Source of the DNA: a virus
Length of the DNA stretch: 64,000 bases
Strand: one strand, 5' to 3'
Virus record (IMG/VR): IMGVR_UViG_3300031521_000040
Span: 19,182 to 83,181 of that record
The notes under the pieces: model-generated
The model's input: only the letters and a program-made list of their open reading frames with translations
The model's database searches: none
Told to the model about the DNA's origin: nothing
Made by a program: the position numbers and the translations under genes
Shown: positions 44,446 through 60,051 of the stretch, one piece after another
Numbering within the stretch: the stretch's first letter is position 1
Layout of the letters: each line of letters opens with the position of its first letter

Positions 44446-44645
44446 GTGTATTAAATGAAATATTTGAAGGTTGGAAAAATCTGATTTTTGAAGATGATAA
44501 GGTTGAGGAAGAAGCCAAAAGAAGAATGGCTATTTGTGTTGGCTGTGATAAATTTACACGTGTAAAATCATGTGAACTATGCGGTTGTTATATGCCAGCA
44601 AAAGTACGATCTATGAAAAGCAAATGTGGTGATAATAAATGGTAA
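44442..44645 (+). CDS. Small Cys-rich protein
   Basis: RMAICVGC..CELCGCYM.AK......C. Confidence 0.6.
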   Translation: MSVLNEIFEGWKNLIFEDDKVEEEAKRRMAICVGCDKFTRVKSCELCGCYMPAKVRSMKSKCGDNKW

Positions 44646-45071
44646 TTAATTCTTACTGTGCGTTATAACATATGTATCTTCTAAAGCATATGCTTCAAAT
44701 TCATCAGTATTAAAATACATTTTACTATATGATGTAAGCTGTTTCGTGATATTGTTAATAATAAAATCAATTCTTCCTGTTAGACATATTGCAGAATGTA
44801 CATAATCACGTTTAGCTAATTTAATCTTTGTGTCTTTTGGAATGAAATGTAATACTGTAACATCATTAGTATTTTCTTCGTTGGGTACTCTTTTAAACCT
44901 AATCTGTTCGTTTTCACTACAATACCCCCAATTATTGAAATACCTCACTACAACTCCATCGCCAATTTCATGTATATATGGAAAATTTTGAAGCATTTCC
45001 GATTTTCTCTTATCGAGTAATTTATCTATTCTATCTATAATATATTTTTTTTCTTCGTTCATTATTAACAA
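44646..45071 (-). CDS. Hypothetical protein (cupin-like?)
   Basis: 141 aa; ALEDTYV C-terminus. Confidence 0.4.
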   Translation of the reverse strand: MLIMNEEKKYIIDRIDKLLDKRKSEMLQNFPYIHEIGDGVVVRYFNNWGYCSENEQIRFKRVPNEENTNDVTVLHFIPKDTKIKLAKRDYVHSAICLTGRIDFIINNITKQLTSYSKMYFNTDEFEAYALEDTYVITHSKN

Positions 45072-45664
45072 TATTGAGTAACAATGGAATTATTTAGGTT
45101 GTCGTGTATGTCCATAGTTGTACGATCAACAATTAGCTGCTCAACATATTCTTTTACAAATAATTTACGTATATTAATAGGTGCTCTTTCAAATGCAGTA
45201 AATTCAATCTCACTACCATCAGCAAATAATGATGCATTGATAGCCTGCCAATCGATATTACTAAACCAAGCTTCGTTTGCTGGCGGAGTATCATATGTGC
45301 CACTATCCGATGTGCCATCTGCACTAACTGAGACATTGTCACCGTGGAATCTTACATCGAATATAATTGGCTTTTCATTAGAATCATATAAGTATTCAAT
45401 ACTTATATTATACTCAATCGATAATTTAGTTACATCTTCTAATTCATTAGATTCCCAATTTCCGCCAATATGTGAATCATCAACATGTATAATTTTTATC
45501 TTAGCGTTTTTTGCTAAAAGTGAATCACATATAAATTGTTTTTGTAGGTCTTCGTTATTCAGTAATTCAATATTAGCCTCATCTTTATGAGATTCGTCAC
45601 TACCAAGAAAATCGAATTTTTCAATTTCTTCATTAACTAATATTATAAAATCTTTTTTTTTCAC
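45065..45664 (-). CDS. Hypothetical protein
   Basis: 199 aa; LVNEEI N-terminal motif; late motif at 45680. Confidence 0.55.
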   Translation of the reverse strand: MKKKDFIILVNEEIEKFDFLGSDESHKDEANIELLNNEDLQKQFICDSLLAKNAKIKIIHVDDSHIGGNWESNELEDVTKLSIEYNISIEYLYDSNEKPIIFDVRFHGDNVSVSADGTSDSGTYDTPPANEAWFSNIDWQAINASLFADGSEIEFTAFERAPINIRKLFVKEYVEQLIVDRTTMDIHDNLNNSIVTQYC

Positions 45665-45778
45665 AGGATAGATTTTATGATAAATACTATATTTTTCTAT
45701 AAAATTTTTAGAAATTCATGGGCAATATGTTTATTTATGCTTTTCACTTGATTTTAGTATTTATGAAAAATTGTATAT

Positions 45779-46192
45779 ATGAGCAAAGATTCGAAAAAAA
45801 TGCTGTTTGAAATGATGGAAAAAATAAATCCTAAGTTTAAACAACTCGAAATAGACGAAATAACAGGAGGATTACCGCCACAAGCTGGTGTAACACCACA
45901 AGCTACTACAACGCCACAGGCTTCACCTAATGCACAGCCAGTACAATCACCAGCCGTTACTCCACAACAGCCAGTAAATGCGCCTAGTGACGTTAGAACA
46001 GTTGCTAGAATGGCACAATCAGCTACTGCACTTCAAGGTGCTAATAAAAGGATTAATACAGCTACTGAATTTCCGCAAGCATTTAAAGATTGGTTTGCAT
46101 CATTGGGGTATAAAGCTGACAATCCTGCAATTTCGATAATGAAAGTAATGACTGAAGTTAAAAAGGCTATGACTGAAATGGGTTTTAAATAA
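45779..46192 (+). CDS. Putative internal head protein
   Basis: KKMLFEMMEKINPKF leader; Pro/Gln-rich linker; late motif at 45756. Confidence 0.55.
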   Translation: MSKDSKKMLFEMMEKINPKFKQLEIDEITGGLPPQAGVTPQATTTPQASPNAQPVQSPAVTPQQPVNAPSDVRTVARMAQSATALQGANKRINTATEFPQAFKDWFASLGYKADNPAISIMKVMTEVKKAMTEMGFK

Positions 46193-46198
46193 TATATT

Positions 46199-46810
46199 AT
46201 GGGAAATAAGCAAAGACTGTTTGAGATAATGGGAAAGGTAAATCCTGAATTTATTATTAAAGAAGACGTACCAGCAAGAGACCCTTCATGGATTGATGAT
46301 AATTCATTAAGTGTTGGTGAATTAAAGGAAGCAATCAATATTTATTCTCATTCGAAAAGTAAAGAAGAAGCATTAGCTAGAGCAAAAAATAGTGGCGTTG
46401 ATATACTAAAGTGTGTTGTAGGATTAATTGGCGTTGCAGGTTTCATTGCTGGAACAGCAGGAATAGGCGGTGCAGTGGTAGCAATTGCTGGTGGTGCTGC
46501 TGTAGGCGGTGCAGGTGCTGCATCTACATTGGATGATGTTCGCAAAGTTTTTAAGAAATTACTAGGTCCTAAAACCAAAACTGCACCTAAAACCCCAACA
46601 GGTTTTATGCAATTATTAAATATTGATCCAGAGGTTTCAATACTATTAGACGATAATATTGAAAACGAATTTATACAATTTGCAGTAAATAAACTCAATT
46701 CTATGCAAGATACCGAACCAGTTCCTAATTTTTTTAATGAATTAAGAGAATTTATTAAGGAAAAGTATGCACAAGTATATAACATAGGATACGGACAATC
46801 AGTACAATAG
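46199..46810 (+). CDS. Putative internal head protein with Gly/Ala hydrophobic segment
   Basis: KQRLFEIMGKVNPEFIIKE leader. Confidence 0.55.
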   Translation: MGNKQRLFEIMGKVNPEFIIKEDVPARDPSWIDDNSLSVGELKEAINIYSHSKSKEEALARAKNSGVDILKCVVGLIGVAGFIAGTAGIGGAVVAIAGGAAVGGAGAASTLDDVRKVFKKLLGPKTKTAPKTPTGFMQLLNIDPEVSILLDDNIENEFIQFAVNKLNSMQDTEPVPNFFNELREFIKEKYAQVYNIGYGQSVQ

Positions 46811-46839
46811 AAATTATTATAAATTATTTTTGAAAATAC

Positions 46840-46882
46840 TTTGCATTTCTTGTAACTTTTACTACCTTTGTTACGTATTTAG
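46840..46882 (+). promoter_or_regulatory. Nested promoters of tRNA array 1
   Basis: TTTG-N19-TACCTTTG; TGTAAC-N17-CGTA; GTATTTAG. Confidence 0.75.
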
Positions 46883-46927
46883 TTATGTCATAATTAATGT
46901 AATTATAATTTTTAAGAAAAAATCAAC

Positions 46928-47002
46928 ATGAAAAATTTAAACAACATACAACAACAACCGCAACAGCATCCACAAATGTCTGAACGGGGAAGTTATGTTT
47001 AA
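46928..47002 (+). CDS. Attenuator leader peptide 1 (MKNLNNIQQQPQQHPQMSERGSYV)
   Basis: 24-aa ORF with a Gln/Pro/His run upstream of the terminator and the Pro/His/Gln tRNAs. Confidence 0.8.
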   Translation: MKNLNNIQQQPQQHPQMSERGSYV

Positions 47003-47029
47003 ATTTATCATGAGTTTAAAGCATTATAG

Positions 47030-47060
47030 AAACCCTGTTCGAAAGTTCAGGGTTTTTTTT
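47030..47060 (+). terminator. Attenuator terminator 1
   Basis: AAACCCTG...CAGGGTTTTTTTT; its 5' arm can alternatively pair with GAACGGGG (46982-46989). Confidence 0.8.
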
Positions 47061-47085
47061 ATGTATATATGTTCTTTGAAAAGTA

Positions 47086-47320
47086 TTGAAGAGGTGACTG
47101 AATGTTAAAGTTAATCAGGTGAAGGAGAGCCTTATGCTGGTAAAGTCAGTGTCTGCAACAAGACACTGGTGACTGCACCGAGGGGTGGGGTGAAATACCC
47201 ACACTGACCTAAAACGAGGCGTAGCACAAAGTATGGTTATTGTTCGGTGTACAACGATAATAATTTGAAATCGACCAACGCCTATCCTCACTCTGTGGGT
47301 TAAAGTCCCACCCTCTTCAA
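47086..47320 (+). ncRNA. Large tRNA-like RNA (about 235 nt)
   Basis: TTGAAGAGG/CCTCTTCAA terminal stem, D-like arm, T-like arm GTGGG-TTAAAGT-CCCAC; about 170 nt structured insert. Confidence 0.6.
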
Positions 47321-47325
47321 AATAT

Positions 47326-47415
47326 CTAGGCGTAGGTCTGTAGTTGGTAGCAGTCCTGTCTTGGAAGCAGGTAGGGTAAAACCTCTCGTCAGTTCGAATC
47401 TGACCGCTTAGACCA
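47326..47415 (+). tRNA. tRNA-Pro(TGG), long variable arm
   Basis: CCTGT-CTTGGAA-GCAGG anticodon arm, GTTCGAATC, encoded CCA. Confidence 0.85.
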
Positions 47416-47423
47416 ATTAATAT

Positions 47424-47495
47424 AGAGTAGTAGCGCAGTGGTAGCGTACATGGTTTGGGACCATGTGGTCGTGGGTTCGAGTCCCACTTACTCTA
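47424..47495 (+). tRNA. tRNA-Pro(TGG)
   Basis: CATGG-TTTGGGA-CCATG; canonical cloverleaf. Confidence 0.92.
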
Positions 47496-47506
47496 CAAGA
47501 TCACAT

Positions 47507-47578
47507 GGGACGATTGGTGTATCGGTAGCACGGAAGTTTGTGAAGCTTTTAGAGTGGGTTCAAACCCCACATCGCCCC
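47507..47578 (+). tRNA. tRNA-His(GTG)
   Basis: GAAGT-TTGTGAA-GCTTT; G-1/C73. Confidence 0.88.
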
Positions 47579-47587
47579 CTAAATTAT

Positions 47588-47659
47588 TGTTGTATAATAC
47601 AATGGTTAGTATAACTGACTTTGAATCAGTTTATTGTGGTTCGAATCCACATACAACAA
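47588..47659 (+). tRNA. tRNA-Gln(TTG)
   Basis: ACTGA-CTTTGAA-TCAGT. Confidence 0.9.
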
Positions 47660-47729
47660 CAAAATATTGTTCGATTTTTTATAAAATGATTCGAACTTTC
47701 ATATGTTTTCAGTATTTATGATAAAACAT

Positions 47730-48299
47730 ATGAAAGAAGAAATATTAAAGTTAAGATCAGAAGGTAAAAAATATTATGAAATACAAAAAGCGTTAAATTG
47801 TTCTAAATCAATTGTTTCGTATTATTGTGGCGTTGCTCAAAAAGACAAATCTCGGAAAAGACAAGCTGAAAATAGAATGAAATGCAACGAAACAACCATT
47901 ATATGTAAAACAACTAATTTCAAATATTGTAGAATTGATAAGTCGAAAAAACTAAGAATTTCATCAACTAGTTTTCAAAAAAGACCTAATAAAATTTATG
48001 AAAAAGATATTACATTAACATTTGATTGGAAGGATGTAATCGATAAATTTGGTGAGGATACTTTTTGTTATTTAAGTGGTGAAAAAATAAACCTTATTAA
48101 TGATAAAAATTATAATCTTGATCATATTGTACCAAAAACCAGAGGTGGCGAAAATAATTTAGAAAATTTAGGAATTCTACATGAAACAGTTAATAAAATG
48201 AAAGGAGCATTGTTGAATGAAGAATTATTTGAGTGGTGTATAAAAATATTGAAGCATAATGGATATGATGTAGTAAAGAATAAAATAATAAACGATTAA
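47730..48299 (+). CDS. HNH endonuclease with N-terminal HTH
   Basis: CYLSG...LDHIVPKTRGGENNLENL...VNKMK; AGTATTTAT at 47711. Confidence 0.85.
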   Translation: MKEEILKLRSEGKKYYEIQKALNCSKSIVSYYCGVAQKDKSRKRQAENRMKCNETTIICKTTNFKYCRIDKSKKLRISSTSFQKRPNKIYEKDITLTFDWKDVIDKFGEDTFCYLSGEKINLINDKNYNLDHIVPKTRGGENNLENLGILHETVNKMKGALLNEELFEWCIKILKHNGYDVVKNKIIND

Positions 48300-48309
48300 A
48301 TATAACAGC

Positions 48310-49128
48310 ATGTATTACATAGTCCAGAAGAACGTCTTTAGAGAAGAAAATTACGATAATTTAATATTGGCTTTAGATCGATTAAAACTATCATACGAAA
48401 TAGTTGATGTACTACCATTTATTGAAACATTCGAGTTTCATTGTAAAGACAAAAATGTGTTTCCTTTTGGGTCAACGAAAATGGCTAGACTGTCTAAGCT
48501 ATATGGCTGGACACCCGGTTCTCAATTGAATGATAATCATGATTATCAGGTGTATAAAAACTTTTATGGTGATAATTTATTGAATTACGATTCACTTATT
48601 TATAAATTCGATGATGAATTTTTTGTTGACAAACCCTTTTTCGCCAGACCAACTAAAGATAGTAAAGCGTTTACTGGTAAGGTATTCGACATGGAAACAT
48701 GGAGAAAATTTAGAAACACTGCCTTAATCAATATACTTGATAAAGATACTGAAATTCAGGTATCATTAGTTAAAGTTATTCAAAAAGAAATAAGATTCTG
48801 GATAGTAAAAGGAAAAATTGCAACTGCAAGTCAATATAAACTAGGAACTAGAGTAGTGCTTAGCGACACCGTAGATCAGCCAGCATATGATTTTTGTAAT
48901 AAAATGATTCAATTGTTTCAATTAAACGATGCATTTGTAATGGATTTGTGTTTGGTTAATGATGAATATAAGATCGTTGAGTGTGGGTGCATTAATTGTG
49001 CTGGTTTCTATCGAGCTGATCTACAGAAATTATTGGTTAAACTAGAAGAAGCATTCTCAAACGATTATTTTGATCGTTGTTATCCGTCATTTTGTAATCC
49101 CATGGATCAAAACTTCTTGCGTTTATAA
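48310..49128 (+). CDS. ATP-grasp protein (R2K-like)
   Basis: FARPTKDSKAFTGKV, EIRFWIVKG, FVMDL, KIVECGCINCAGFY. Confidence 0.75.
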   Translation: MYYIVQKNVFREENYDNLILALDRLKLSYEIVDVLPFIETFEFHCKDKNVFPFGSTKMARLSKLYGWTPGSQLNDNHDYQVYKNFYGDNLLNYDSLIYKFDDEFFVDKPFFARPTKDSKAFTGKVFDMETWRKFRNTALINILDKDTEIQVSLVKVIQKEIRFWIVKGKIATASQYKLGTRVVLSDTVDQPAYDFCNKMIQLFQLNDAFVMDLCLVNDEYKIVECGCINCAGFYRADLQKLLVKLEEAFSNDYFDRCYPSFCNPMDQNFLRL

Positions 49129-49159
49129 AATTTAATAATTACTTTTGCAATAAAACGAT

Positions 49160-49405
49160 ATGAGAGCAGTTGTACCCTGTAATATCGACAATTCTGAAGA
49201 TATTGTCGATACAATAAAATACAATACTATAGGCATTTATGAAGATACAATATCTTCATTCAAAGACTATGTACTACCTGAAAATTCATTAGAACCAACA
49301 ACTACCACAATCTTTTTTCATAAAAGAGAAGATGAACATGGGTTTCTTCAACAAGTTACTATAACAATTAAAACAGAAGTCTTATTAGGATTTCAAAAAT
49401 ATTAA
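49160..49405 (+). CDS. Hypothetical protein
   Basis: 81 aa; TACTTTTG promoter element at 49140. Confidence 0.5.
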   Translation: MRAVVPCNIDNSEDIVDTIKYNTIGIYEDTISSFKDYVLPENSLEPTTTTIFFHKREDEHGFLQQVTITIKTEVLLGFQKY

Positions 49406-49408
49406 TAT

Positions 49409-49873
49409 ATGCAGTACAATCTATATTTAGATGACTTCAGAATGCCATTGGATTCGTTCAATTATACTAACAATAAAATATATAATATTGTTAATTGGAA
49501 GGTTGTGCGTAATTATGATGAATTCGTTGAAGCGATTCTAACTAATGGATTGCCTGAACGAATTTCCTATGATCATGACTTATCATATGAAGATATCAAT
49601 AAAGAAACTGGCTTTACTGAAAAAACTGGCTTGGATTGTGCTAGGTGGCTTATAAACTACTGTATGGATAATAATTTAGATGTGCCAGTTGAAATTTATA
49701 TTCATAGTATGAATACCGTTGGTGCATTAAATATTAAATCATTATTTACTACCTATTATAAGGTATACCCAACCGATAACGACTTTTATATTAATGATGT
49801 CTATATTAAAAACGGATTCTATTCTTATAATTATAGTCGTGGCTTTAATATGTGGAATGAAGATATTTATTAA
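49409..49873 (+). CDS. Cyclic-phosphate-processing receiver-domain protein
   Basis: LYLDDFR, VRNYDEF, ISYDHDL, TGLDCARWL, IHSMNTVG. Confidence 0.8.
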   Translation: MQYNLYLDDFRMPLDSFNYTNNKIYNIVNWKVVRNYDEFVEAILTNGLPERISYDHDLSYEDINKETGFTEKTGLDCARWLINYCMDNNLDVPVEIYIHSMNTVGALNIKSLFTTYYKVYPTDNDFYINDVYIKNGFYSYNYSRGFNMWNEDIY

Positions 49874-49921
49874 GCATGCGTTTTTAAATAAAATAAGTAT
49901 TTATGAAAAAATATATATTTT

Positions 49922-50344
49922 ATGCAAAAAATAGGTAAAGACAGACTTTTCGAAGTCCTAAGTAGGTTAGATAAAACATTCAAACTCATAAATGAAGAAC
50001 AACTACATCATTATAATGATGCTAACGAAACATTTGCACCCGATCAAAATGGCAATGAAGTTACAGATACTGTAAGTCCTGCTACAAGTACAGCACCACT
50101 TAACGAAGATCAATCAGAATCACCTATTCATAAATATGTTTACTTTGCATTTAACTATCCTAATGATTTTATTGAGCAAACATGGGCTGATGATGAAAAT
50201 TTAATGACCCATCTTAAATCTAAATTCCAAGGATATTATAATAAGTATGGTTCAGCTTCAGTAATGAATTATTTTTATACTGAACTTGATGTTCAAAATC
50301 AAAGGAAATTGGATGATTGGATTATTAATAATTATAATGGCTAA
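49922..50344 (+). CDS. Putative internal head protein
   Basis: KDRLFEVLSRLDKTFKLINEE leader; late motif at 49896. Confidence 0.55.
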   Translation: MQKIGKDRLFEVLSRLDKTFKLINEEQLHHYNDANETFAPDQNGNEVTDTVSPATSTAPLNEDQSESPIHKYVYFAFNYPNDFIEQTWADDENLMTHLKSKFQGYYNKYGSASVMNYFYTELDVQNQRKLDDWIINNYNG

Positions 50345-50350
50345 TATGTC

Positions 50351-50560
50351 ATGAATGAACGCAGGGAATATATCAAAGTAGGTAGGAAAGCTTCTAAACG
50401 TGGCGATAGAGCTATAGCTTCTTCTTGTAAATATGATAGCTATTGGACTCAACCTTGTAATAAATATTGGAAAAGACAGGCAAATAAAAAGGTTAGATGC
50501 TCAAATATCATCAATAATATGGGATATAAAAGGATTTATGATAGCTTTTACTGGTCTTAA
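50351..50560 (+). CDS. Small basic protein
   Basis: 69 aa; KYWKRQANKKVR. Confidence 0.5.
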   Translation: MNERREYIKVGRKASKRGDRAIASSCKYDSYWTQPCNKYWKRQANKKVRCSNIINNMGYKRIYDSFYWS

Positions 50561-50613
50561 AACAATTGATATTTAATGAGTTAAAAATTATTATTAATTA
50601 TTTTTAAAAATAC

Positions 50614-50656
50614 TTTGCATTTCTTGTAACATTTTATACCTTTGTTACGTATTTAG
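50614..50656 (+). promoter_or_regulatory. Nested promoters of tRNA array 2
   Basis: Near-identical to 46840-46882. Confidence 0.75.
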
Positions 50657-50724
50657 ATATACAAACAACAATAAGTAATTATTGAAATTTATTAAAAACA
50701 ACGAATATTAAAAACAAAAACGAA

Positions 50725-50814
50725 ATGAAAAATTTACTCGAAACTTTATTAGTAGCAATGGTAGCCGACCTATTATGGTTGGATGCAGAGGATATGTTAT
50801 GTGATGTCGGGTAA
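50725..50814 (+). CDS. Attenuator leader peptide 2 (MKNLLETLLVAMVADLLWLDAEDMLCDVG)
   Basis: 29 aa; 21 residues are L/D/E/V/A/W, matching the downstream tRNAs. Confidence 0.8.
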   Translation: MKNLLETLLVAMVADLLWLDAEDMLCDVG

Positions 50815-50850
50815 AGGAAATAATAATATTGTTCACCTTTCTTTTTATAA

Positions 50851-50884
50851 AAGACCCGACTATTAAAACCAGTCGGGTTTTTTT
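50851..50884 (+). terminator. Attenuator terminator 2
   Basis: AAGACCCGACT...AGTCGGGTTTTTTT; ACCCGAC can alternatively pair with GTCGGGT (50806-50812). Confidence 0.85.
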
Positions 50885-50928
50885 GTTTTAGGTGAATAAG
50901 TTCTTTGACATGCTGGAAAAAATAAAAT

Positions 50929-51008
50929 GGTCTTAGGGTCTGCTGGGCGTGGACGACACCCTGTCACGGTGTTCAATCAGGTCGATTCGAATTCGACTAG
51001 GACCGCCA
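50929..51008 (+). tRNA. tRNA-Asp(GTC)
   Basis: ACACC-CTGTCAC-GGTGT, G73, encoded CCA. Confidence 0.85.
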
Positions 51009-51015
51009 TTAATAC

Positions 51016-51088
51016 AATGCTATAGTTCAATTGGCAGAATAACTGACTGTCTATCAGTGGGTTGCGGGTTCGAGTCCCGTTAGCATTG
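51016..51088 (+). tRNA. tRNA-Asp(GTC)
   Basis: ACTGA-CTGTCTA-TCAGT. Confidence 0.9.
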
Positions 51089-51148
51089 CACGGTTTACTG
51101 GAAGGTAAACTAATCAGAGTTATATAAAACGTGATAAATTAACTCTGA

Positions 51149-51218
51149 AGTCTCGTAGTTTAGAGTGGATATGAATGCCCTGAAGGGGTGGTTGCTGGTT
51201 CAACGCCAGTCGGGACTG
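51149..51218 (+). tRNA. Degenerate tRNA, anticodon undetermined
   Basis: Acceptor, D and T arms present; anticodon arm shortened (GCCC-TGAAG-GGGT). Confidence 0.5.
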
Positions 51219-51228
51219 CTTTTAAAAT

Positions 51229-51303
51229 GTTGCCGTTGATAAATTGGCGAAATCACCTGACTTTCAATCAGGTCATATGTGGGTTCAAGTCCCATCGGCA
51301 ATA
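51229..51303 (+). tRNA. tRNA-Glu(TTC)
   Basis: CCTGA-CTTTCAA-TCAGG. Confidence 0.88.
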
Positions 51304-51309
51304 CAATAT

Positions 51310-51382
51310 GTCGCTATATGCTAATTGGCTAGGCAATAACACCTTCACTGTTATGGTGTGAGTTCGATCCTCACTAGCGATA
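51310..51382 (+). tRNA. tRNA-Glu(TTC)
   Basis: TAACA-CCTTCAC-TGTTA. Confidence 0.8.
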
Positions 51383-51403
51383 CAATTTTTAAATAAAAAC
51401 GTT

Positions 51404-51541
51404 ATGAAACCATTAAAAAGAAAATTAACCTCAACTGAATTTAGTAAAAAGCAAGAGAACGCAGCTAATTACGGAAAATTCATTAAAACAACTTTAGTTG
51501 AAAGAGGTAAACAGAGAAACATTTTCAAAATTAAGAACTGA
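51404..51541 (+). CDS. Small basic ORF (45 aa) inside the tRNA array
   Basis: MKPLKRKLTSTEFSKKQENAANYGKFIKTTLVERGKQRNIFKIKN. Confidence 0.4.
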   Translation: MKPLKRKLTSTEFSKKQENAANYGKFIKTTLVERGKQRNIFKIKN

Positions 51542-51599
51542 TAACATATAAGCGGTTAATAGCCTGTGAGACATTAACGGCTAATATATTATTACTTAT

Positions 51600-51674
51600 G
51601 TTCCCTTAGCTTAGCTGGTTTAAAGCACTTCTCCTACAAAGAAGATACCGTTGGTTCAAATCCAACAGGGAACA
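51600..51674 (+). tRNA. tRNA-Val(TAC)
   Basis: CTTCT-CCTACAA-AGAAG. Confidence 0.88.
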
Positions 51675-51741
51675 CAAAACATAACAATAAGTGTTTTCGC
51701 TTATATTCATATTTAATAAGCGAAAACACTTGTAAATATAT

Positions 51742-51823
51742 CCTTTTGTGGTGGAATTGGTATACACGGCAGCCCAAGAAACTGTTGTCGAAGGACATGC
51801 GAGTTCAAATCTCGCCAAGAGGA
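51742..51823 (+). tRNA. tRNA-Leu (AAG by register; class II)
   Basis: Leu-type D arm GTGGAATTGGTATACAC, GCAGC-CCAAGAA-ACTGT, long variable arm. Confidence 0.75.
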
Positions 51824-51989
51824 CTGAGATGTAATATGGTAATAAAGACGATGGCTGAGTGAGGCTATAGCGTGTCCAAAGCGCCAATAGACCACCAGAG
51901 GTTAACTCCCGATGCAATATCTGGCAACCTCACTCCCATATTACGGAAAGATGAATTATCGTCTGGAGATTCCAGACGGAAAATAATAT

Positions 51990-52064
51990 GCTGGTGTAGC
52001 CGAATGGTAAATAGGCAACTGACTTAGGATCAGAAATTTGCGAGTTCGAGTCTCGCCACCAGTA
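51990..52064 (+). tRNA. tRNA-Leu(TAG), short variable arm
   Basis: CTGA-CTTAGGA-TCAG. Confidence 0.82.
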
Positions 52065-52069
52065 CATTT

Positions 52070-52158
52070 GGGGATGTGATGAAATTGGTAGCACATGACA
52101 AGCTTAAACCTTGTTGCGAAATAATAGTAGCGTGTCAGTTCGAGTCTGACCTTCCCTA
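52070..52158 (+). tRNA. tRNA-Leu(TAA)
   Basis: ACAAG-CTTAAAC-CTTGT, long variable arm. Confidence 0.88.
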
Positions 52159-52169
52159 CTGAAATACAT

Positions 52170-52241
52170 GGGGTGTGAAGTGTAATTGGCTGCACAAAAC
52201 ATTTGCAATGTTTTAGAGGGGTTCAAGTCCCACACGCTCCA
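52170..52241 (+). tRNA. tRNA-Ala(TGC)
   Basis: AAACA-TTTGCAA-TGTTT; G3:U70 pair. Confidence 0.85.
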
Positions 52242-52305
52242 CAAGAAATTTTGAGTTCATTCAATCTTTTCTCCACAATTAAAGTATTTATGATAAAATA
52301 TTATT

Positions 52306-53097
52306 ATGAATATATGTAAAAATTGTGGAATTGAAATCGAATCACATCGTAAATATTGTTCATTGAGATGTAGAAATATATATGTTAATGAAAATCTTAG
52401 AAACTATAGTAAAAACGGTGATTCTATTAGCAAAAAATTTGTTGATGAATATAATTCACATCCAAAAAAATGTAAAGCATGTGATAAAATTATACCATAT
52501 GCGCTAAGGGAATGGGTTTTTTGTTCTAAAGAATGTAAAAAAACTGGATTAATTAAGTGGAATGAAAATCGAAAAGGCGAAAAGCGTAGTTTTAGTAAAG
52601 AAGGAATTGATAATATTATTATAGCAAGACGATTAAGATTAGATACTAGTTTTGAGGATTACATGTCTAATCCGAAACTTTGTAAAGAATGTGGTGAAAA
52701 ATTGCCGTTTGACCATAAAGCACGAATTTTCTGTAATATTAAATGTAAACGAATTTATGATAGTAAAAACATATCCGAATATCAAATTTATTATAAAAAT
52801 TGTCAGTTTAAATTTAATTTATCTAACTATCCAGAAGAATTTAATTTCGATATGATAAATGAATATGGTTGGTATAAAGCAAAAAATCATGGTGATAATT
52901 TAAATGGTATTAGTCGTGACCATATGATTTCAGTAAAATATGGTTATGAAAATAATATTAGCTCAGATATTATTTCTCACCCTGCTAATTGCAAACTAAT
53001 GCCACATAGTAGTAATTCAAAGAAACATAGTAACTGTTCGCTTAGCTTAGAAAACTTGCTACTAAAAATCAATGAATGGAATTTAAAATATTATTAG
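52306..53097 (+). CDS. HNH-like endonuclease with Zn-finger repeats, inserted in the tRNA array
   Basis: Three CxxC...(Y/F)C..C modules; SRDHMIS...HPANC.LM....NSKK; late motif at 52283. Confidence 0.75.
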   Translation: MNICKNCGIEIESHRKYCSLRCRNIYVNENLRNYSKNGDSISKKFVDEYNSHPKKCKACDKIIPYALREWVFCSKECKKTGLIKWNENRKGEKRSFSKEGIDNIIIARRLRLDTSFEDYMSNPKLCKECGEKLPFDHKARIFCNIKCKRIYDSKNISEYQIYYKNCQFKFNLSNYPEEFNFDMINEYGWYKAKNHGDNLNGISRDHMISVKYGYENNISSDIISHPANCKLMPHSSNSKKHSNCSLSLENLLLKINEWNLKYY

Positions 53098-53135
53098 AAA
53101 TAAATAAAATCGTCTGGAAATTCCAGACAAAACAT

Positions 53136-53218
53136 ACGTAAGTTGCCGAGTGGTTAAAGGCGGTGGTCTCCAAAACTACTAGAGAAATCTTTCGTGGGTT
53201 CGAATCCTACCTTACGTG
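53136..53218 (+). tRNA. tRNA-Trp(CCA), long variable arm
   Basis: GTGGT-CTCCAAA-ACTAC; G73. Confidence 0.85.
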
Positions 53219-53240
53219 CTTGATAATCAACAAGTTATAT

Positions 53241-53314
53241 AGCCCTATATGCCAACTGGTAGAGTGAGGTGTTTCAAACGCATCGTAGTGAGAGTTCGAA
53301 TCTCTCTAGGGCTA
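53241..53314 (+). tRNA. tRNA-Leu(CAA), short variable arm
   Basis: GGTGT-TTCAAAC-GCATC. Confidence 0.75.
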
Positions 53315-53403
53315 CATTTAGTCATCGGGAATCTCCAGATGAAATTAATTTAATATTTTTGTAACATTTCGCTATAGTTATACGTATAATAATTAAAATA
53401 TTC

Positions 53404-54171
53404 TTGCTTATTATTATCATTATCATTACTTTTAACAAAAATTATCACATGTATATTATTTCAAATAAGAAAAAAGATTATTATGATGGCGTTGCTGGTA
53501 CAGTAGGCATTGATAAAACCATTGTATATAATCGTCAGCAAATTGAAATAGGTGAAAAGGACTTACCTTCTTTATTTAAAGTTGATATACATAATCATAA
53601 CAATTCTTCATTCACCAAATTGGATGCTTATCACATTAAAGATGAATATTCTAAAGATTTTTTTAATTATTCATGTGATATTATTGGATTTTGTGGTAAG
53701 ATTTATTTTTGTTGGAATTTCTATTATAAGAAATATAATAGGTTTACGCATGCTGATGAAACAGTTACTCATATTACATATGATATTACTGAAGCTAAGG
53801 ATATTTTAACAGATAAAAACTATTATGGTAATCTTGCTGACAATATCAACGATGTTCTAAATTATGATGCAATGCATTTGTTTAGAGAATTTAAAACACC
53901 TGTATTTGTTTATTCAGATGACCCACATGATTCGGTTTTGCTTGATAGGCGCAGATATAGATGGGCAAAAAAGATCATATTGAATCCAATATTAAATGAT
54001 TTCAACTTCTATTCTGAGTTTGATTCATTTCAAGCATTTCAAGAAATTCAGATGTTTATCGGTGGCGTACTAGGTTGTAATGAAAAAGATATTATTGAAG
54101 TTGCTGATAAATATAAGATTGCGCAGCACGGATTTGATAAATTTAGTTTTAGAAAGGATAAGGAAAAATGA
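53404..54171 (+). CDS. Conserved phage hypothetical protein (likely start near 53449)
   Basis: KKDYYDG...FQAFQEIQMFIGGVL...KIAQHGFDK.SFR. Confidence 0.6.
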   Translation: MLIIIIIITFNKNYHMYIISNKKKDYYDGVAGTVGIDKTIVYNRQQIEIGEKDLPSLFKVDIHNHNNSSFTKLDAYHIKDEYSKDFFNYSCDIIGFCGKIYFCWNFYYKKYNRFTHADETVTHITYDITEAKDILTDKNYYGNLADNINDVLNYDAMHLFREFKTPVFVYSDDPHDSVLLDRRRYRWAKKIILNPILNDFNFYSEFDSFQAFQEIQMFIGGVLGCNEKDIIEVADKYKIAQHGFDKFSFRKDKEK

Positions 54172-54440
54172 AACCTGTTATAAACAAAATATTTTTCATA
54201 CCTGCTAAGTTCGTGGAAGTTCGTGGCGATAAAGTAGTTCTCGATTGCTTGCTTACAGCAAATCATCAGGGTATTGAAAGAAGAATTTTCGATAAAATAT
54301 TGTTTGACGATATTGATAATCCAAATCTAATTATGATTGCAATGATATCAGGCTTTATGTGTTTTCAGATTAATGTAATGTCTGCCGATGAATATATGTA
54401 TTTGTATAAGAAAAAATGGTTTTGGCTGTTAAAAAATTAA
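54168..54440 (+). CDS. Hypothetical protein
   Basis: Operonic ORF. Confidence 0.5.
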   Translation: MKPVINKIFFIPAKFVEVRGDKVVLDCLLTANHQGIERRIFDKILFDDIDNPNLIMIAMISGFMCFQINVMSADEYMYLYKKKWFWLLKN

Positions 54441-54913
54441 TCATGGAACAATTAGATAAGAGAAAAATTAAATTTAGGATAGTTGAACACCAATATGATA
54501 ATGGTAGTAAAAGTTTCACACCTGAATGGTATTGCTATATTAAACAAGCATGTAATTTTGGATGGAATCCTTGCTATGGTTCTAATTTAACTGCGGAAAC
54601 CGATACGCATGAACAGGCATTAAAAAATATCATTTTTTTTGCTGGTTGTATTGGATTATTCGTATCCAAGCCTAAAGAAATTATACATGAAATAAACATA
54701 GGTAATTTATTTGATATCAATAAAGACTGTAGAAAAACACCTGATATTGAAAAAACAGATGAAATACTTGCTGAGCTTAAATTAAGAAAAAGAAGAAATC
54801 TCATGAATCGAGCACTAAACAATAACGCTTCAGAATTCGCATATAGTGAAATTGAAATCACGGTTTTGAATGATTTGATTAAGTACGTTCAAGATTTAAT
54901 AAATAGCAAATAA
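54416..54913 (+). CDS. Hypothetical protein
   Basis: Operonic ORF. Confidence 0.5.
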   Translation: MVLAVKKLIMEQLDKRKIKFRIVEHQYDNGSKSFTPEWYCYIKQACNFGWNPCYGSNLTAETDTHEQALKNIIFFAGCIGLFVSKPKEIIHEINIGNLFDINKDCRKTPDIEKTDEILAELKLRKRRNLMNRALNNNASEFAYSEIEITVLNDLIKYVQDLINSK

Positions 54914-55076
54914 TGAAAAAAACTGAAAAGATATTACTGGCGCTTAAGGCAGACAGAAGATTAAATGATACTCATTGTACTTTAAACAACTGTTCACCTT
55001 CACAATATATGCAAGGTAGTAATAAAATATTGGATGATTACATTATATATGTAGAAAATTTAATAAATAAGAAATA

Positions 55077-55364
55077 ATGGACTTTGAATCGGGTGATATT
55101 GTTTTAGTTAAAAAAGGAACTACTGTATGGCTAGTTAATCTTGGCTTAGGTATGATACTTGCGTATGACATATTGGTTGAAATTGATTGTTATTTTGGCG
55201 GTAGTTATTTAGGTAAAAGAAAATTGATATGGGAAAAGGACGATGATTTTGAATTAATAGATAATGCAGCAGCTTTTGAACTATTTAAAGATGATCTTAA
55301 AGACCTAATCAAATACGATACACTTACATATGAAGAAAAATTAGCACTTACCAAATACATTTAA
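55077..55364 (+). CDS. Hypothetical protein
   Basis: Operonic ORF. Confidence 0.5.
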   Translation: MDFESGDIVLVKKGTTVWLVNLGLGMILAYDILVEIDCYFGGSYLGKRKLIWEKDDDFELIDNAAAFELFKDDLKDLIKYDTLTYEEKLALTKYI

Positions 55365-55368
55365 TATT

Positions 55369-55701
55369 ATGAAAATCAGGAAAATATGTGGATTCATGCG
55401 GTTCTTTTTAGGTGACAGCGTTTTAGCTATTACATTAGCTCCTTTTGGCATATATGTTAAACCCGATTATGATATAACAGAAGATACCATCAGACATGAA
55501 ACGATACATTGGAAACAACAAATGGAAATGTTAATAATTCCATTTTATCTCTGGTATTTTGCTGAATACATCATACGTGTGATACTTTTCGAAGATAAAC
55601 CATATATGAACTTGTCAATGGAGAAGGAAGCATATCAAAATGAAAACAACGTTGATTACTTAGCAACTCGCAAGCATTTTGCTTGGTTTAAATATTTATG
55701 A
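55369..55701 (+). CDS. HExxH-motif membrane-associated protein
   Basis: AITLAPFGI, IRHETIHWKQQME, SMEKEAY. Confidence 0.65.
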   Translation: MKIRKICGFMRFFLGDSVLAITLAPFGIYVKPDYDITEDTIRHETIHWKQQMEMLIIPFYLWYFAEYIIRVILFEDKPYMNLSMEKEAYQNENNVDYLATRKHFAWFKYL

Positions 55702-55855
55702 TTATGAAAAGGATAGTAAATTGGTTTAAGAAGTGTTATTTGAATTACCAGATAAGCGAGAATGATATCGCATTAACTATTCAAGCCATAACATATGAAG
55801 AATATTTAATAATTGACGATAAGTTAAAAAAAGAACTTGAAAAAATAAAATAATC

Positions 55856-56581
55856 ATGAAAGTAAAAATAGGTAATAGAGTATTTGATGCTGATGATCAG
55901 CCAATCATGCTTTACTTTGAAGACAGTAGTGAGTCACAAACGGTTGCAATGCAATTGTTTAATATGGCAACTGATTCTCGAAAATATTGCATGTATCCTG
56001 ATGACACTGATGCCACCAAGATTTTAAATTTCATGAATACCGATAAGTATGACGAACAAAAAAGATGCAACGATCAATGGATTTCGTTAATAAAGCAAAT
56101 TGGTTTTTCAGATAAGAATATTAAAACAGTGCTGAAATATGTTAAGCTGCATACAAGATATGAAATAGCTGGAATGGTTATTGATAAAAACATTACTTCT
56201 CCAAGTGACATACCAGTACCAACACTATATTTAGCATTAAAGGTTTTATTTGAATTGGAAAAACAAGGTCTTTTCAACAGGTTATTTTTCATTGATAGAC
56301 CGACAATAAGCACTTATAAATTTAACAGAAAATCATATTCTTTTAATGTTGCAACTAGTATTATGAAGTTCAAATTAAATCCTTATGATGATTTTCCGAT
56401 CTCAATGCTGGAAACAGGACTTGATGATGTAATAGTTAATGAAACGGTTTTCATATTGAAAAAGCAATTGGATTCGACACCATTATTAATATTCATTCTC
56501 TTTTCAGATAGAAGTATAATTGATGGTAAAGAATTAATAATAAGCCACAGATATTCAGTGGGTAAAATAAACGAACAATGA
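55856..56581 (+). CDS. Hypothetical protein
   Basis: 241 aa ORF. Confidence 0.5.
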   Translation: MKVKIGNRVFDADDQPIMLYFEDSSESQTVAMQLFNMATDSRKYCMYPDDTDATKILNFMNTDKYDEQKRCNDQWISLIKQIGFSDKNIKTVLKYVKLHTRYEIAGMVIDKNITSPSDIPVPTLYLALKVLFELEKQGLFNRLFFIDRPTISTYKFNRKSYSFNVATSIMKFKLNPYDDFPISMLETGLDDVIVNETVFILKKQLDSTPLLIFILFSDRSIIDGKELIISHRYSVGKINEQ

Positions 56582-57018
56582 GAAAAATTACAGTGATAAT
56601 TGAAGATGGGTTCAATACTTTAAGTCAAACAATTAAATGTGATGCCATTTGCTTTGCAGCATCAGGTGTTGGTGCATTAAGCAGTCATTTAAATCATGAA
56701 ATGAATATGCTTATTGAGTCTCAAAAGGATTGGATTGCTGAAGAGCCAAAAGATTGTAAATTTGTCATAGCGTGTAGATATAGTGATGTAATTGCATGTG
56801 GTATTGATACATCGTTTGATGCTTTATGTGTATACATTGGTGAACATTTCAATAATGTATGCAAGAGAAATCCTAGCTATTCAGATAAATATACAAAAGA
56901 AGAGCATAAGAAATTTTGGTATCATTTATTAGAAGTAAATGAAAGTGAATGTGAAAATTTAATGAGAGATCACATTGATAATGCTCATGAAAATAAATGG
57001 TTTCATTATAGTGCTTAA
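56578..57018 (+). CDS. Hypothetical protein
   Basis: 146 aa ORF. Confidence 0.5.
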   Translation: MRKITVIIEDGFNTLSQTIKCDAICFAASGVGALSSHLNHEMNMLIESQKDWIAEEPKDCKFVIACRYSDVIACGIDTSFDALCVYIGEHFNNVCKRNPSYSDKYTKEEHKKFWYHLLEVNESECENLMRDHIDNAHENKWFHYSA

Positions 57019-57027
57019 ACTAATATT

Positions 57028-57480
57028 ATGAACGAAGAAAGCTGGAAAACACTAAATAAATTCCATGATGATCTAATAATTGCAATTGAAGAATATGAAA
57101 ATTCTCCTGAAGGCAAGACAGCTAATGCATGGAAGAAATATCTTGAAGAATTTCAAGAAGAACGGTTTCAACAATTTGAAAAATGGTTAGAACATAACGA
57201 TTTTGATAAATTGATATATCGTTTAATATCGGAACATGATGCTGACTATCGTGATAGCTGGTATGAAAGAGGTATTGAGCCACAGCCGAATAATAAACTA
57301 CAATTTTTACTCGATTATGTTGATAATAGGTGTAAAATAACTAACGTGAAAAAGCTTGATTGTGGGTTCAACAACCAAATACGATTATTTAAGGGTTATT
57401 ACTTTCAAACAACACATGGTCAAGGGACTGTTACTGATATCTATAACAAAAAGAAACTGCAACACTTATTACACGTATGA
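57028..57480 (+). CDS. Hypothetical protein
   Basis: 150 aa ORF. Confidence 0.5.
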   Translation: MNEESWKTLNKFHDDLIIAIEEYENSPEGKTANAWKKYLEEFQEERFQQFEKWLEHNDFDKLIYRLISEHDADYRDSWYERGIEPQPNNKLQFLLDYVDNRCKITNVKKLDCGFNNQIRLFKGYYFQTTHGQGTVTDIYNKKKLQHLLHV

Positions 57481-57785
57481 AAATATATAATAAATTAGTT
57501 CGTGATAAGATATTGAAAATATTGAAAAAAGCTGGTGTAAAGCATAAATATCATATTGCTGATGATGCTGAATACTATACTAAACTTCACGATAAACTAC
57601 AAGAGGAAATTCAAGAATTTGTTGAAAACCCATGTATGGAAGAATTTGCTGATATTTTGGAAGTATTAGAAGCTATTGGTAAATATCATAAACTTGATTT
57701 TGGTGAAATTAAAACAATAAAAGGAATTAAACAAATTGAACGTGGTGCATTCTATAATAAAATAATTTTAGAATCTACAGATTAA
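57477..57785 (+). CDS. MazG/HisE-like all-alpha NTP pyrophosphohydrolase
   Basis: YNKLVRDKI, KLQEEIQEF, EEFADILEV, ERGAF. Confidence 0.8.
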   Translation: MKIYNKLVRDKILKILKKAGVKHKYHIADDAEYYTKLHDKLQEEIQEFVENPCMEEFADILEVLEAIGKYHKLDFGEIKTIKGIKQIERGAFYNKIILESTD

Positions 57786-57790
57786 AATAT

Positions 57791-57878
57791 GGGGGTGTGA
57801 TGAAATTGGTAAACATAACAGACTTAAAATCTGTCGGTTAGCTTAAGCGCCTTGAGGGTTCAAGTCCCTCTACCCCTA
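57791..57878 (+). tRNA. tRNA-Leu(TAA)
   Basis: ACAGA-CTTAAAA-TCTGT, long variable arm. Confidence 0.9.
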
Positions 57879-58076
57879 CAAACCTAAATGAAATGAAAGC
57901 TAAACCAAAAGAAGATGATTGTAATTGTGGTAAACCATTGAAATTAGATGATCCACGAAAGAAAGCATTAGAAGCAAAAAAAATTATTAAGAAAAGAAAT
58001 CTACTTAAATAAAAGTATTTATTATTATGAAAAAACTATGGGAATTCTTGTAACGCTCTAATGCGTATACGGGATT

Positions 58077-58364
58077 ATGAGAAATAAAGAAACTATGGAT
58101 GCCACTGACAATCGTGGCGTATTCAATCGTGCATACAAGGAATATCTTGAGCACAAAGGAAAAATTCATTGCAGCTATTGCAAATATCATAAGGGTGAAA
58201 ATTACAAGGGTAATAGCTATGGAGGATATGGGAAAGTTAAGCTTCCTAATTGGAAGCTAGTATCGAAGAACCCTAAACAATGGATGAAAAAACCGATGAA
58301 AATCGTTGAAAAACCAACACATCACCCAATGTATAATATGTTTTATACTGAAATCAAATTTTAG
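58077..58364 (+). CDS. Small basic hypothetical protein
   Basis: CSYCKYH; 95 aa. Confidence 0.5.
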   Translation: MRNKETMDATDNRGVFNRAYKEYLEHKGKIHCSYCKYHKGENYKGNSYGGYGKVKLPNWKLVSKNPKQWMKKPMKIVEKPTHHPMYNMFYTEIKF

Positions 58365-58372
58365 TATAATAT

Positions 58373-58443
58373 GCGGATATCGTTCAAAGGTAGGACTGCT
58401 CCCCCATAAAGAGTAGATATGAGTTCGATTCTCATTATCCGTA
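58373..58443 (+). tRNA. tRNA with CAT anticodon (Met or Ile2), atypical
   Basis: GCTCC-CCCATAA-AGAGT; intact acceptor and T arms. Confidence 0.65.
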
Positions 58444-58447
58444 CAAA

Positions 58448-58906
58448 TTAAAATGTAACTGAGCAGATATTGGTTTTAAAATCAAAATCTAAGCCAGATA
58501 CATACAATCCACCACCTGTGTTTAAAACAGCATCACCTACATTGAATTTCCAAGGCTGTTCCGCTATGTTTTTATCTGTTTCATTTTCTAATGCATCGGT
58601 ATGCTTATTGTAGGATGCGAGCTTATATGTTCCCTCTACACCGTCTATTGATATAATGAAGTTCTCAACGCCAAAGTCATTCAACCAAAACGAAATATGC
58701 CAACTAATAAAAATATCACTATCATTGATGTCTGCATCAAAATCTGATGAAAATACTTCGTAATTAAAAAATGTTGAATCTTTTATTTCTTGACGAAATC
58801 TAAAATTATCGTTTTCCATTACAAAACCTTCGTTAAGAAATTTTTTAATCTCTTCATTAAGAATTGTATCTATGTTTTTTCCAGCGTTTAATGTTTTAAA
58901 ACTCAT
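58448..58906 (-). CDS. Hypothetical protein
   Basis: ILNEEIKKFLNE N-terminal motif; late motif at 58921. Confidence 0.55.
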   Translation of the reverse strand: MSFKTLNAGKNIDTILNEEIKKFLNEGFVMENDNFRFRQEIKDSTFFNYEVFSSDFDADINDSDIFISWHISFWLNDFGVENFIISIDGVEGTYKLASYNKHTDALENETDKNIAEQPWKFNVGDAVLNTGGGLYVSGLDFDFKTNICSVTF

Positions 58907-58980
58907 GTCAGTATTTTTCTATAAATACACTATGATTGTTAAAAATTCTTCATTATATTTGCAACATAATATATTGAAGT

Positions 58981-59995: not shown

Positions 59996-60051
59996 TCATT
60001 TTATGGTTGTAAAAAATATGAAGAGTATTTATATCTATAAAACTATATGGC

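Follow-up and report, generated by a model that had tools for sequence, protein, structure and literature searches.

We describe a tRNA gene cassette, cassette 2, within a 64,000-nucleotide stretch of viral DNA (positions 19,182 to 83,181 of the IMG/VR virus record IMGVR_UViG_3300031521_000040; hereafter the window). The record is a single contig of 83 kb with a G+C content of 30.7%, of which the window forms the last 64 kb. Its genes include those for a T4-like terminase, portal and major head protein, and its closest cultured relatives (Flavobacterium phage and T4-like terminases) are only ~26% identical in the terminase. All 17 sequencing runs that contain the stretch are peat or sediment metagenomes, none being registered as RNA, and megablast and blastn searches with cassette 2 against 50,697 phage records found nothing relevant among cultured phages. 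The cassette consists of a promoter, a short open reading frame (ORF), an intrinsic terminator, a boxA-like motif and eleven tRNA genes, among which a homing-endonuclease gene is inserted (Table 1). Taking the two judgements jointly, we consider it highly probable that the virus is a T4-distant myovirus of a Bacteroidota host, and that cassette 2, judged from its sequence, is a ribosome-mediated leader-peptide attenuator gating the eleven-gene tRNA operon.

Table 1 Features of cassette 2 and of related parts of the window (positions are those of the window; MFE, minimum free energy)
Feature	Position	Strand	Details
Promoter	50614-50655	+	TTTG (50614-50617), 19 nt, TACCTTTG (50637-50644)
Overlaid phage-conserved promoter pattern	50624-50655	+	TTGTAAC (50624-50630)-N16-ACGTATTTA (50647-50655); read from the sequence
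5′ untranslated region	50656-50724	+	A-rich, ~70 nt, without Shine-Dalgarno; read from the sequence
Leader ORF	50725-50814	+	29 codons and TAA, beginning ~70 nt past the promoter; read from the sequence
Sensor part of leader	codons 4-25	+	array amino acids at 19 of 22 codons
Segment 1	50733-50741	+	TTTACTCGA; anti-antiterminator, can pair with segment 2; in the free-leader MFE structure
Segment 2	50806-50815	+	antiterminator strand GTCGGGT (50806-50812), last base shared with the stop codon (50812-50814)
Spacer	50816-50853	+	two small hairpins (~50819-50833; TCTTTT/AAAAGA, 50840-50854); truncated-transcript fold
Conserved motif	50835-50844	+	CACCTTTCTT; inside the spacer, kept in the 18-cassette alignment A1
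Intrinsic terminator	50854-50884	+	5′ arm ACCCGACT (50854-50861, segment 3), 9-nt loop, 3′ arm AGTCGGGT (50871-50878, segment 4), seven T
boxA-like motif	50900-50918	+	GTTCTTTGACATGCTGGAA; 10 nt 5′ of the first tRNA
tRNA array, first part	50929-52242	+	ARAGORN, with starts: Asp-GTC 50929, 51016; Glu-TTC 51229, 51310; Val-TAC 51600; Leu-AAG 51742; Leu-TAG 51990; Leu-TAA 52070; Ala-TGC 52170
Degenerate tRNA-like element	51150-51217	+	between the second Asp and the first Glu gene
45-codon ORF	51404-51541		between array genes, alongside structured spacers
Structured spacer	51825-51989	+	precedes Leu-TAG; fold z = -2.75; terminal hairpin CGTCTGGAGATTCCAGACG
HNH-type homing-endonuclease gene	52306-53097	+	inserted in the array; PHROGs phrog_23051 (5.7e-31), phrog_1271 HNH endonuclease (5.6e-10)
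Near-copy of the CGTCTGGAGATTCCAGACG hairpin	53110-53128	+	after the HNH gene, just 5′ of Trp-CCA
tRNA array, last part	53136-53315	+	Trp-CCA, 84 nt, long variable arm (53136-53219); Leu-CAA, 75 nt (53241-53315)
Promoter variant	53359-53390	+	TTGTAAC-N16-ACGTATAAT
Promoter variant	13515-13546	-	TTGTAAC-N16-ACGTATATA
boxA-type motifs of the other arrays	47071-47082; 63645-63656		GTTCTTTGACAT..TGGAA
Conserved structured RNA, ~230 nt	47085-47325	+	follows the cassette 1 terminator/boxA, precedes the first tRNA-Pro
Second HNH homing-endonuclease gene	47703-48299	+	directly after array 1
RNA ligase and endonuclease-family genes	60052-62062	+	adjoining; T4 Rnl1-like ligase (phrog_562, 1.6e-63); just upstream of cassette 3

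The composition of the leader ORF mirrors the array that it precedes. It contains eight Leu, four Asp, three Val, three Ala, two Glu and one Trp residue, such that amino acids of the array occupy 21 of its 28 positions after the start codon (binomial P = 3.7e-6 against a background of 0.32, the share of these six amino acids in the phage's own long ORFs), and it is entirely devoid of Pro, His and Gln. When all ATG-started ORFs of 20-45 codons in the 83-kb genome are compared (400 in total), the leader ranks first for the fraction made up by the six amino acids. In the neighbouring cassette 1, located at ~46840-47080, the leader is enriched solely for its own Pro/His/Gln array (9 of 23 residues, P = 3.5e-5), and carries 3 of 23 residues from the cassette 2 set. 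In the cassette 2 leader, Leu is encoded by TTA (five times), CTC, CTA and TTG, and both TGG and TTG, the codons of the last two tRNAs of the array, are present.

This correspondence was proposed in a first-pass annotation of the window, which had read the leader composition as given above, assigned two Asp, two Glu, one Val, one Ala, one Trp and four Leu tRNAs to the array, with the Leu anticodons TAA, TAG, CAA and AAG, and named in advance enrichment over random small ORFs as a test. We recover the same composition and the same array, the AAG anticodon included, and the enrichment places the leader at the top of the 400 small ORFs. Ten of the eleven tRNAs called by ARAGORN are also found by the Rfam tRNA model, the 80-nt first Asp gene being called by ARAGORN alone. 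Moreover, the closest relatives of each array tRNA in other phages bear an identical anticodon, and consequently the anticodon check that the annotation had suggested, run here with ARAGORN, yielded no reassignment that would abolish the match between leader and array.

The promoter of cassette 2 combines an arrangement that we take to be the -33/-7 promoter type of Bacteroidota (TTTG-N19-TACCTTTG) with an overlaid 32-nt pattern, which occurs exactly three times in the window (0 expected), on each occasion ahead of a short ORF, a terminator and tRNA genes. Two variants of the pattern precede ordinary protein genes, which indicates that the motif represents a general promoter class of the phage, rather than one specific to tRNA cassettes. 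A-rich, unstructured leaders, such as the one that follows the promoter, are the usual context for translation initiation in Bacteroidota. When the promoter pattern was used to scan IMG/VR, it returned 43 loci, in ~35 of which the same promoter stands before a tRNA array (on contigs of 41-349 kb), and each of these ~35 has a short ORF and a terminator downstream of the promoter and ahead of its array. Four classes of ORF can be distinguished. Class A leaders, to which that of cassette 2 belongs, are rich in Asp, Glu, Val, Leu, Ala and Trp and head arrays of exactly those tRNAs; a Gln/Pro/His-rich class precedes Pro, His and Gln tRNAs; a class rich in Thr, Ser, Ile, Asn, Phe, Cys, Gly and Arg precedes those tRNAs; and a Lys/Tyr-rich class precedes Lys and Tyr tRNAs. 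In the complete 327-kb jumbo phage G001, all four classes are present on one strand and together cover every amino acid except Met; each of its leaders is enriched for its own array only (P = 4.8e-5, 1.5e-3, 8.8e-8 and 8.4e-3), and all off-diagonal tests are non-significant.

The correspondence extends beyond loci that share this promoter. Phage loci collected by means of the boxA-like motif (see below) possess arrays with quite different groupings of tRNAs, each behind a leader and a terminator, and the composition of the leader follows the array, with up to ~18 amino acids sensed per leader, as judged by composition. An automatic detector, requiring a terminator, a same-strand tRNA no more than 450 nt further on, and an ORF of 14-55 codons with its end close to the hairpin, identified 73 distinct cassettes, which cluster into 40 leader families (a number that includes wrong-frame false positives). 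Over these 40 families the mean own-array z is 1.65, compared to -0.11 +/- 0.19 when leaders and arrays are re-paired at random, and a mean as high as that observed was reached in 0 of 20,000 permutations.

AT-rich DNA yields many short ORFs, as the 400 counted in the 83-kb genome illustrate, and the leader might simply be a chance or untranslated ORF lying before a leaky, unregulated terminator, its amino-acid match being coincidental. We regard this as extremely unlikely: apart from the strength of the enrichment and the first rank of the leader, the match recurs in cassette 1, in the four cassettes of G001 and across the leader families, and the frame is open in all 18 class A relatives, where it ends 0-10 nt beyond the antiterminator (see below). 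For practical purposes, the comparative statistics exclude a chance ORF. A further explanation, to which we attach an equally slight probability, is that the product of the ORF is a small hydrophobic or acidic peptide with a function of its own (e.g. one that is membrane-active), and that its composition reflects that function. The class A peptide is indeed rich in Leu, Val, Ala and Trp and moderately conserved, but such a function leaves unexplained why differently composed leader classes each match their own array. Nor would it account for the restricted nature of substitutions: where an array amino acid predominates in a leader column, 58% of variants belong to the amino-acid set of the array, compared to 39% expected from single-base changes (P = 0.003).

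The first-pass annotation had gone further, claiming that leader and array match down to individual Leu codons. All four types of Leu codon are present in the leader, as it stated, but within the window this is not significant when taken alone (P ~0.4). The relatives provide modest comparative support for tracking at the codon level, as far as can be judged from their sequences. In seven of the nine class A cassettes with a called Leu tRNA, every Leu codon of the leader can be read by the Leu anticodons of its own array. A relative with only Leu-TAA has solely TTA and TTG as leader Leu codons, and a relative that lacks Leu-TAA has no TTA in its leader, even though TTA makes up half of the Leu codons in such genomes. 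Furthermore, where the usual CTC codon has been replaced, CTT turns up elsewhere in the leader. Over all cassettes, 135 of 207 Leu, Arg and Ser codons are readable by anticodons of the own array, compared to an expectation of 112.9 (z = 3.5).

Leader and terminator together hold the elements of a potential transcriptional switch. The terminator has a G+C-rich stem of 8 bp, and its hairpin is bidirectional because an A-tract lies upstream; a consensus scanner (sigma-70 and terminator) reported the hairpin on the minus strand only, since its loop limit was 8 and the loop here is 9. Within segment 2, GTCGGGT is complementary to ACCCGAC (50854-50860) in the 5′ arm of the terminator (P = 0.007 against shuffled sequences), such that an antiterminator overlapping the stop codon, as described in the first-pass annotation, does exist. 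In the fold of the free RNA, TTTACTCGA pairs with TCGGGTAAA (1:2, a 9-bp helix in the MFE structure) and the terminator forms (3:4), while in a transcript truncated ahead of the 3′ arm, GTCGGGT and ACCCGAC pair with each other (2:3). In these predicted folds the layout matches the 1:2, 2:3 and 3:4 helices of classical attenuators. Cassette 2 combines the anatomical features by which an attenuator is recognised: an ORF between promoter and genes, codons that match those genes, an intrinsic terminator, a mutually exclusive antiterminator near the stop codon, and a 1:2 segment able to sequester it.

An additional extension of the antiterminator by pairing of AAAGG with CCTTT, also put forward in the first-pass annotation, is seen in the truncated fold of this window, but it is not conserved, and we reject it as a general extension given that AAAGG is absent from 17 of 17 relatives. 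What is conserved is a CTTTCTT-type motif that pairs with the A-tract immediately 5′ of the terminator arm in ~11 of 18 cassettes, and the TCTTTT/AAAAGA hairpin of the spacer is the representative in this window of such TTTCTT/AAGAAA-type hairpins. By holding the A-tract, this pairing probably stabilises the antiterminator form.

The switch itself varies together with its terminator. In the 18 class A cassettes of alignment A1, the antiterminator helix (2:3) is paired in 98.4% of cells, compared to 21-58% when the strands are slid. The corresponding figures for the 1:2 helix are 92.5% and 28-47%, with no compensatory change in this helix. In one relative (L029) the antiterminator, the terminator 5′ arm and the 3′ arm are all altered together (GTCGAG / CTCGAC / GTCGAG), amounting to one compensatory change from G-C to A-U in 2:3, which also turns a G-U pair of 1:2 into A-U. 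As variation within class A is too low for covariation statistics, we relied on complementarity across families instead. A segment of the leader is complementary to the 5′ arm of its own terminator in 46 of 64 cassettes (P < 0.05 against shuffles; ~3 expected), and these segments differ widely in sequence between families and mostly end 0-26 nt before the leader stop codon. The central claim of the first-pass annotation, a leader that mirrors its array joined to a terminator/antiterminator switch, is supported on each count: enrichment is for the own array and not across arrays, and the antiterminator varies with its own terminator.

From this anatomy, the composition statistics and the comparative covariation, we infer the following course of events. 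Transcription would proceed from the promoter, and a ribosome would translate the 29-codon leader. With rapid decoding, it would arrive at the stop codon and cover GTCGGGT, the terminator (50854-50878 and the T run) would form, and RNA polymerase would halt before the tRNA genes. If there is no translation, segment 1 would sequester segment 2, with termination likewise the outcome. If, instead, aminoacyl-tRNA is scarce for Leu (in any of four isoacceptor codon sets), Asp, Glu, Val, Ala or Trp, the ribosome would stall within codons 4-25, leaving GTCGGGT free to pair with ACCCGAC once that arm has been made, so that the terminator is blocked. Polymerase that reads through would cross the boxA-like site and transcribe the array through the HNH insertion to Trp and Leu-CAA. 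The phage probably makes these tRNAs only when ribosomes read the leader codons slowly, and because the tRNA products would relieve the stall, the arrangement would constitute a closed negative-feedback loop on decoding capacity. Candidate triggers include a mismatch between phage and host codon usage, loss of host tRNAs during infection, and host anticodon nucleases.

As is established for the trp, his and leu attenuators, ribosome stalling reports aminoacyl-tRNA, and thus depends on amino acid and synthetase in addition to the tRNA. Consequently, the element might sense amino-acid supply rather than tRNA abundance, with the array being induced within a starvation response. We think this very unlikely, if marginally less so than a chance ORF or a functional peptide, given that extra tRNA does not cure amino-acid starvation, such that the loop would not close, and that the precise match between leader codons and downstream anticodons points to the tRNAs as the controlled variable. 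Sensing of amino-acid supply is, in any case, a variant of the attenuation model and not an alternative mechanism.

Behind the terminator lies the boxA-like motif. The same type of motif (GTTCTTTGACAT..TGGAA) heads all three arrays in which we found it in the window, and more than 117 phage loci of IMG/VR (L064-L179) carry it ~25 nt ahead of the first tRNA gene. In a scan of bacterial sequences it was found at no fewer than 120 loci (L180-L299), overwhelmingly from Bacteroidota, and the matches to the 19-nt pattern include Pedobacter, Mucilaginibacter, Chitinophagaceae, Bacteroidales and Flavobacteriales. At all five rrn-bearing loci that were checked with Rfam, the motif lies in the 16S-23S spacer, past the spacer tRNAs and ~150 nt before the 23S gene; the 16S-23S spacer is the usual place of the spacer boxA in rrn operons. 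A location ahead of the 16S gene was considered and rejected, as no match to a 16S-start pattern occurs within 1.5 kb and Rfam places the motif in the 16S-23S spacer. The phage site agrees with the host rrn spacer motif over 17 specified bases and is present after every terminator, and in both sequence and position the motif corresponds to the rrn boxA of the host phylum. Its overwhelming occurrence in Bacteroidota points to a host from this phylum.

By analogy with rrn operons, the candidate boxA probably loads host Nus antitermination factors, and we infer that polymerases that have passed the attenuator would be made termination-resistant for the long untranslated array. As in rrn boxA/Nus antitermination, the motif heads a long untranslated operon of structured RNAs; the present case is unlike it in being located in a phage and downstream of a conditional terminator, and binding of NusB/NusE is putative. 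That each attenuator is followed by an rrn-type boxA suggests that the rRNA antitermination system of the host is borrowed by phages for their tRNA operons.

Several observations weigh against attenuation as set out above. With respect to the leader, it contains three Met, one Thr and one Cys codon for which its own array has no tRNA, two of its 21 array codons (GCC and GTC) lie beyond strict wobble of the single Ala and Val tRNAs, and eight Leu codons drawn from genome usage would cover all four isoacceptors 40% of the time. The leader of one relative (L075) has CTC and CTA, and only Leu-TAA is called in its array. With respect to the comparative data, complete independence of the 40 leader families cannot be assumed, and the class A helices are highly conserved, so that covariation within the family derives from one sequence. 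With respect to the switch, the terminator is always the most stable fold at equilibrium, even with the ribosome footprint masked, which means that the switch would have to be kinetic, and a ribosome stalled at codons 11-22 leaves segments 1 and 2 both free, making re-formation of 1:2 conceivable.

The equilibrium result, together with the presence after every terminator of a site matching the host rrn spacer motif, lends some weight to an explanation that accepts translation of the leader and its match to the array as genuine, but involves no competition between hairpins. Read-through would then arise from protection against Rho, from transcription-translation coupling, or from a phage or Nus-boxA override, with the leader tuning the level of expression. 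We consider this improbable, albeit the least improbable of the alternatives. The boxA lies downstream of the terminator and hence cannot help polymerase to pass it, and complementarity of leaders to their own terminators, co-varying across cassettes, is predicted by competition between hairpins only. Attenuation by competing hairpins, acting kinetically, thus remains our preferred interpretation.

Leader-peptide attenuation is textbook for amino-acid biosynthesis and for a few synthetase genes, and the known attenuators include those of the enterobacterial ilvGMEDA (Ile/Leu/Val), thr (Thr/Ile), trp, his, leu and phe operons. Cassette 2 resembles these in possessing a short ORF rich in regulatory codons, 1:2, 2:3 and 3:4 helices, a terminator before the regulated genes, an antiterminator strand within the ribosome footprint of the stop codon and, as in some of them, several amino acids per leader. 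It is unlike them in that it is carried by a phage of a probable Bacteroidota host, that it would control tRNAs and not biosynthetic enzymes, such that the product itself closes the loop, that six amino acids would be sensed without long runs of single codons, that four Leu isoacceptor sets are represented, and that a boxA-like site follows. The pheST attenuator of E. coli similarly places a component of the translation apparatus under a leader peptide reporting the decoding of cognate codons, but there the gene product is a synthetase, a single amino acid is sensed, and the system is bacterial. T-box riboswitches share with cassette 2 a decision between terminator and antiterminator that reports tRNA status, as well as translation-related targets, but they bind uncharged tRNA directly via a specifier codon, without translation, where the phage element has an ORF. 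No match to an Rfam leader family or T-box was found by cmscan in positions 44000-60000 (E <= 1), which returned only the tRNAs and three weak, unrelated matches.

To our knowledge, leader-peptide attenuation is not known for tRNA genes, and full-text literature searches did not find a published case. The nearest published system is the spare tRNA array of Anabaena sp. PCC 7120, the trn L-array, in which spare tRNA genes are induced under translational stress (PMC8421152), and whose repressor, TrcR, is a ribbon-helix-helix protein (PMC10272220). Like cassette 2, the L-array is a surplus tRNA array with homing-endonuclease genes close by, and its expression is low until translation is impaired, but control is exerted by a protein repressor, and its 2021 paper mentions no leader, attenuation or terminator.

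Several further features of the arrays deserve mention. The amino-acid identities of the CCA, CAA and TAG tRNAs are putative. The 84-nt CCA tRNA has a Leu/Ser-type D arm, a long variable arm and a discriminator G, and the CAA and TAG 'Leu' tRNAs are just 75-76 nt in length and lack a long arm. Among the collected phage loci, CCA forms of 83-84 nt comprise six distinct sequences, the other Trp-CCA genes being 72-75 nt long. The grouping of tRNAs in arrays 1 and 2 and in G001 partly tracks the first codon letter (Asp, Glu, Val and Ala, GNN; Pro, His and Gln, CNN), with Lys and Tyr tRNAs forming a block of their own. The class C array of G001 (L061), its largest, ends with a tRNA with a CTA anticodon (an amber suppressor), as is likewise present in L108, and this hints at TAG recoding in G001.

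Other elements in and around the arrays are structured RNAs or mobile genes. HNH homing-endonuclease genes, such as the one inserted in array 2 and the one after array 1, are known from the tRNA regions of T4 and from tRNA arrays of bacteria. The degenerate tRNA-like element has an acceptor-like stem and a good T arm without a regular anticodon arm; neither ARAGORN nor Rfam calls it, and at the matching place in the array of the relative L023 ARAGORN gives an odd '???' tRNA. Neither the hairpin that terminates the structured spacer before Leu-TAG nor its near-copy before Trp-CCA carries a plus-strand T tail, and these hairpins may mark sites of processing or the borders of mobile insertions. 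In cassette 1, the structured RNA of ~230 nt is conserved, recurring in G001 (L063), where it separates the class B attenuator from tRNA-Pro. Its terminal sequences, GAAGAGG (5′) and CCTCTTC (3′), pair with one another beside a T-arm-like hairpin (GTGGG-TTAAAGT-CCCAC), giving tRNA-like ends with a large insert (fold z = -2.5), and the RNA was not named by ARAGORN, in either tRNA or tmRNA mode, or by Rfam. Finally, cassette 3, whose leader is of the Lys/Tyr type, has just upstream of it the RNA ligase gene and its adjoining endonuclease-family gene. This pair may constitute a tRNA-repair module beside the tRNAs that known anticodon nucleases attack.

Why and when phages use tRNAs of their own is debated, with explanations including the matching of codon usage, replacement of degraded host tRNAs, and escape from defences that target tRNAs. 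If the interpretation given here is true, the array is on only under slow reading of specific codons, such that the phage gauges decoding capacity codon by codon, and each leader states which shortages matter, making the question of phage tRNAs directly testable. The elements are compact and modular (~260 nt from promoter to boxA), and could serve as natural, isoacceptor-specific reporters of decoding in Bacteroidota. Considered as a whole, it is probable, with somewhat less assurance than we attach to cassette 2 itself, that closed-loop control governs the tRNA genes of Bacteroidota phages, with a translated sensor of decoding capacity at the head of each array and, in large phages, four such sensors that partition all amino acids but Met into blocks under separate regulation. 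This would represent the first leader-peptide attenuation of tRNA genes, and it may allow phages to switch on spare tRNAs when those of the host are depleted or cleaved, for example by anticodon-nuclease defences.

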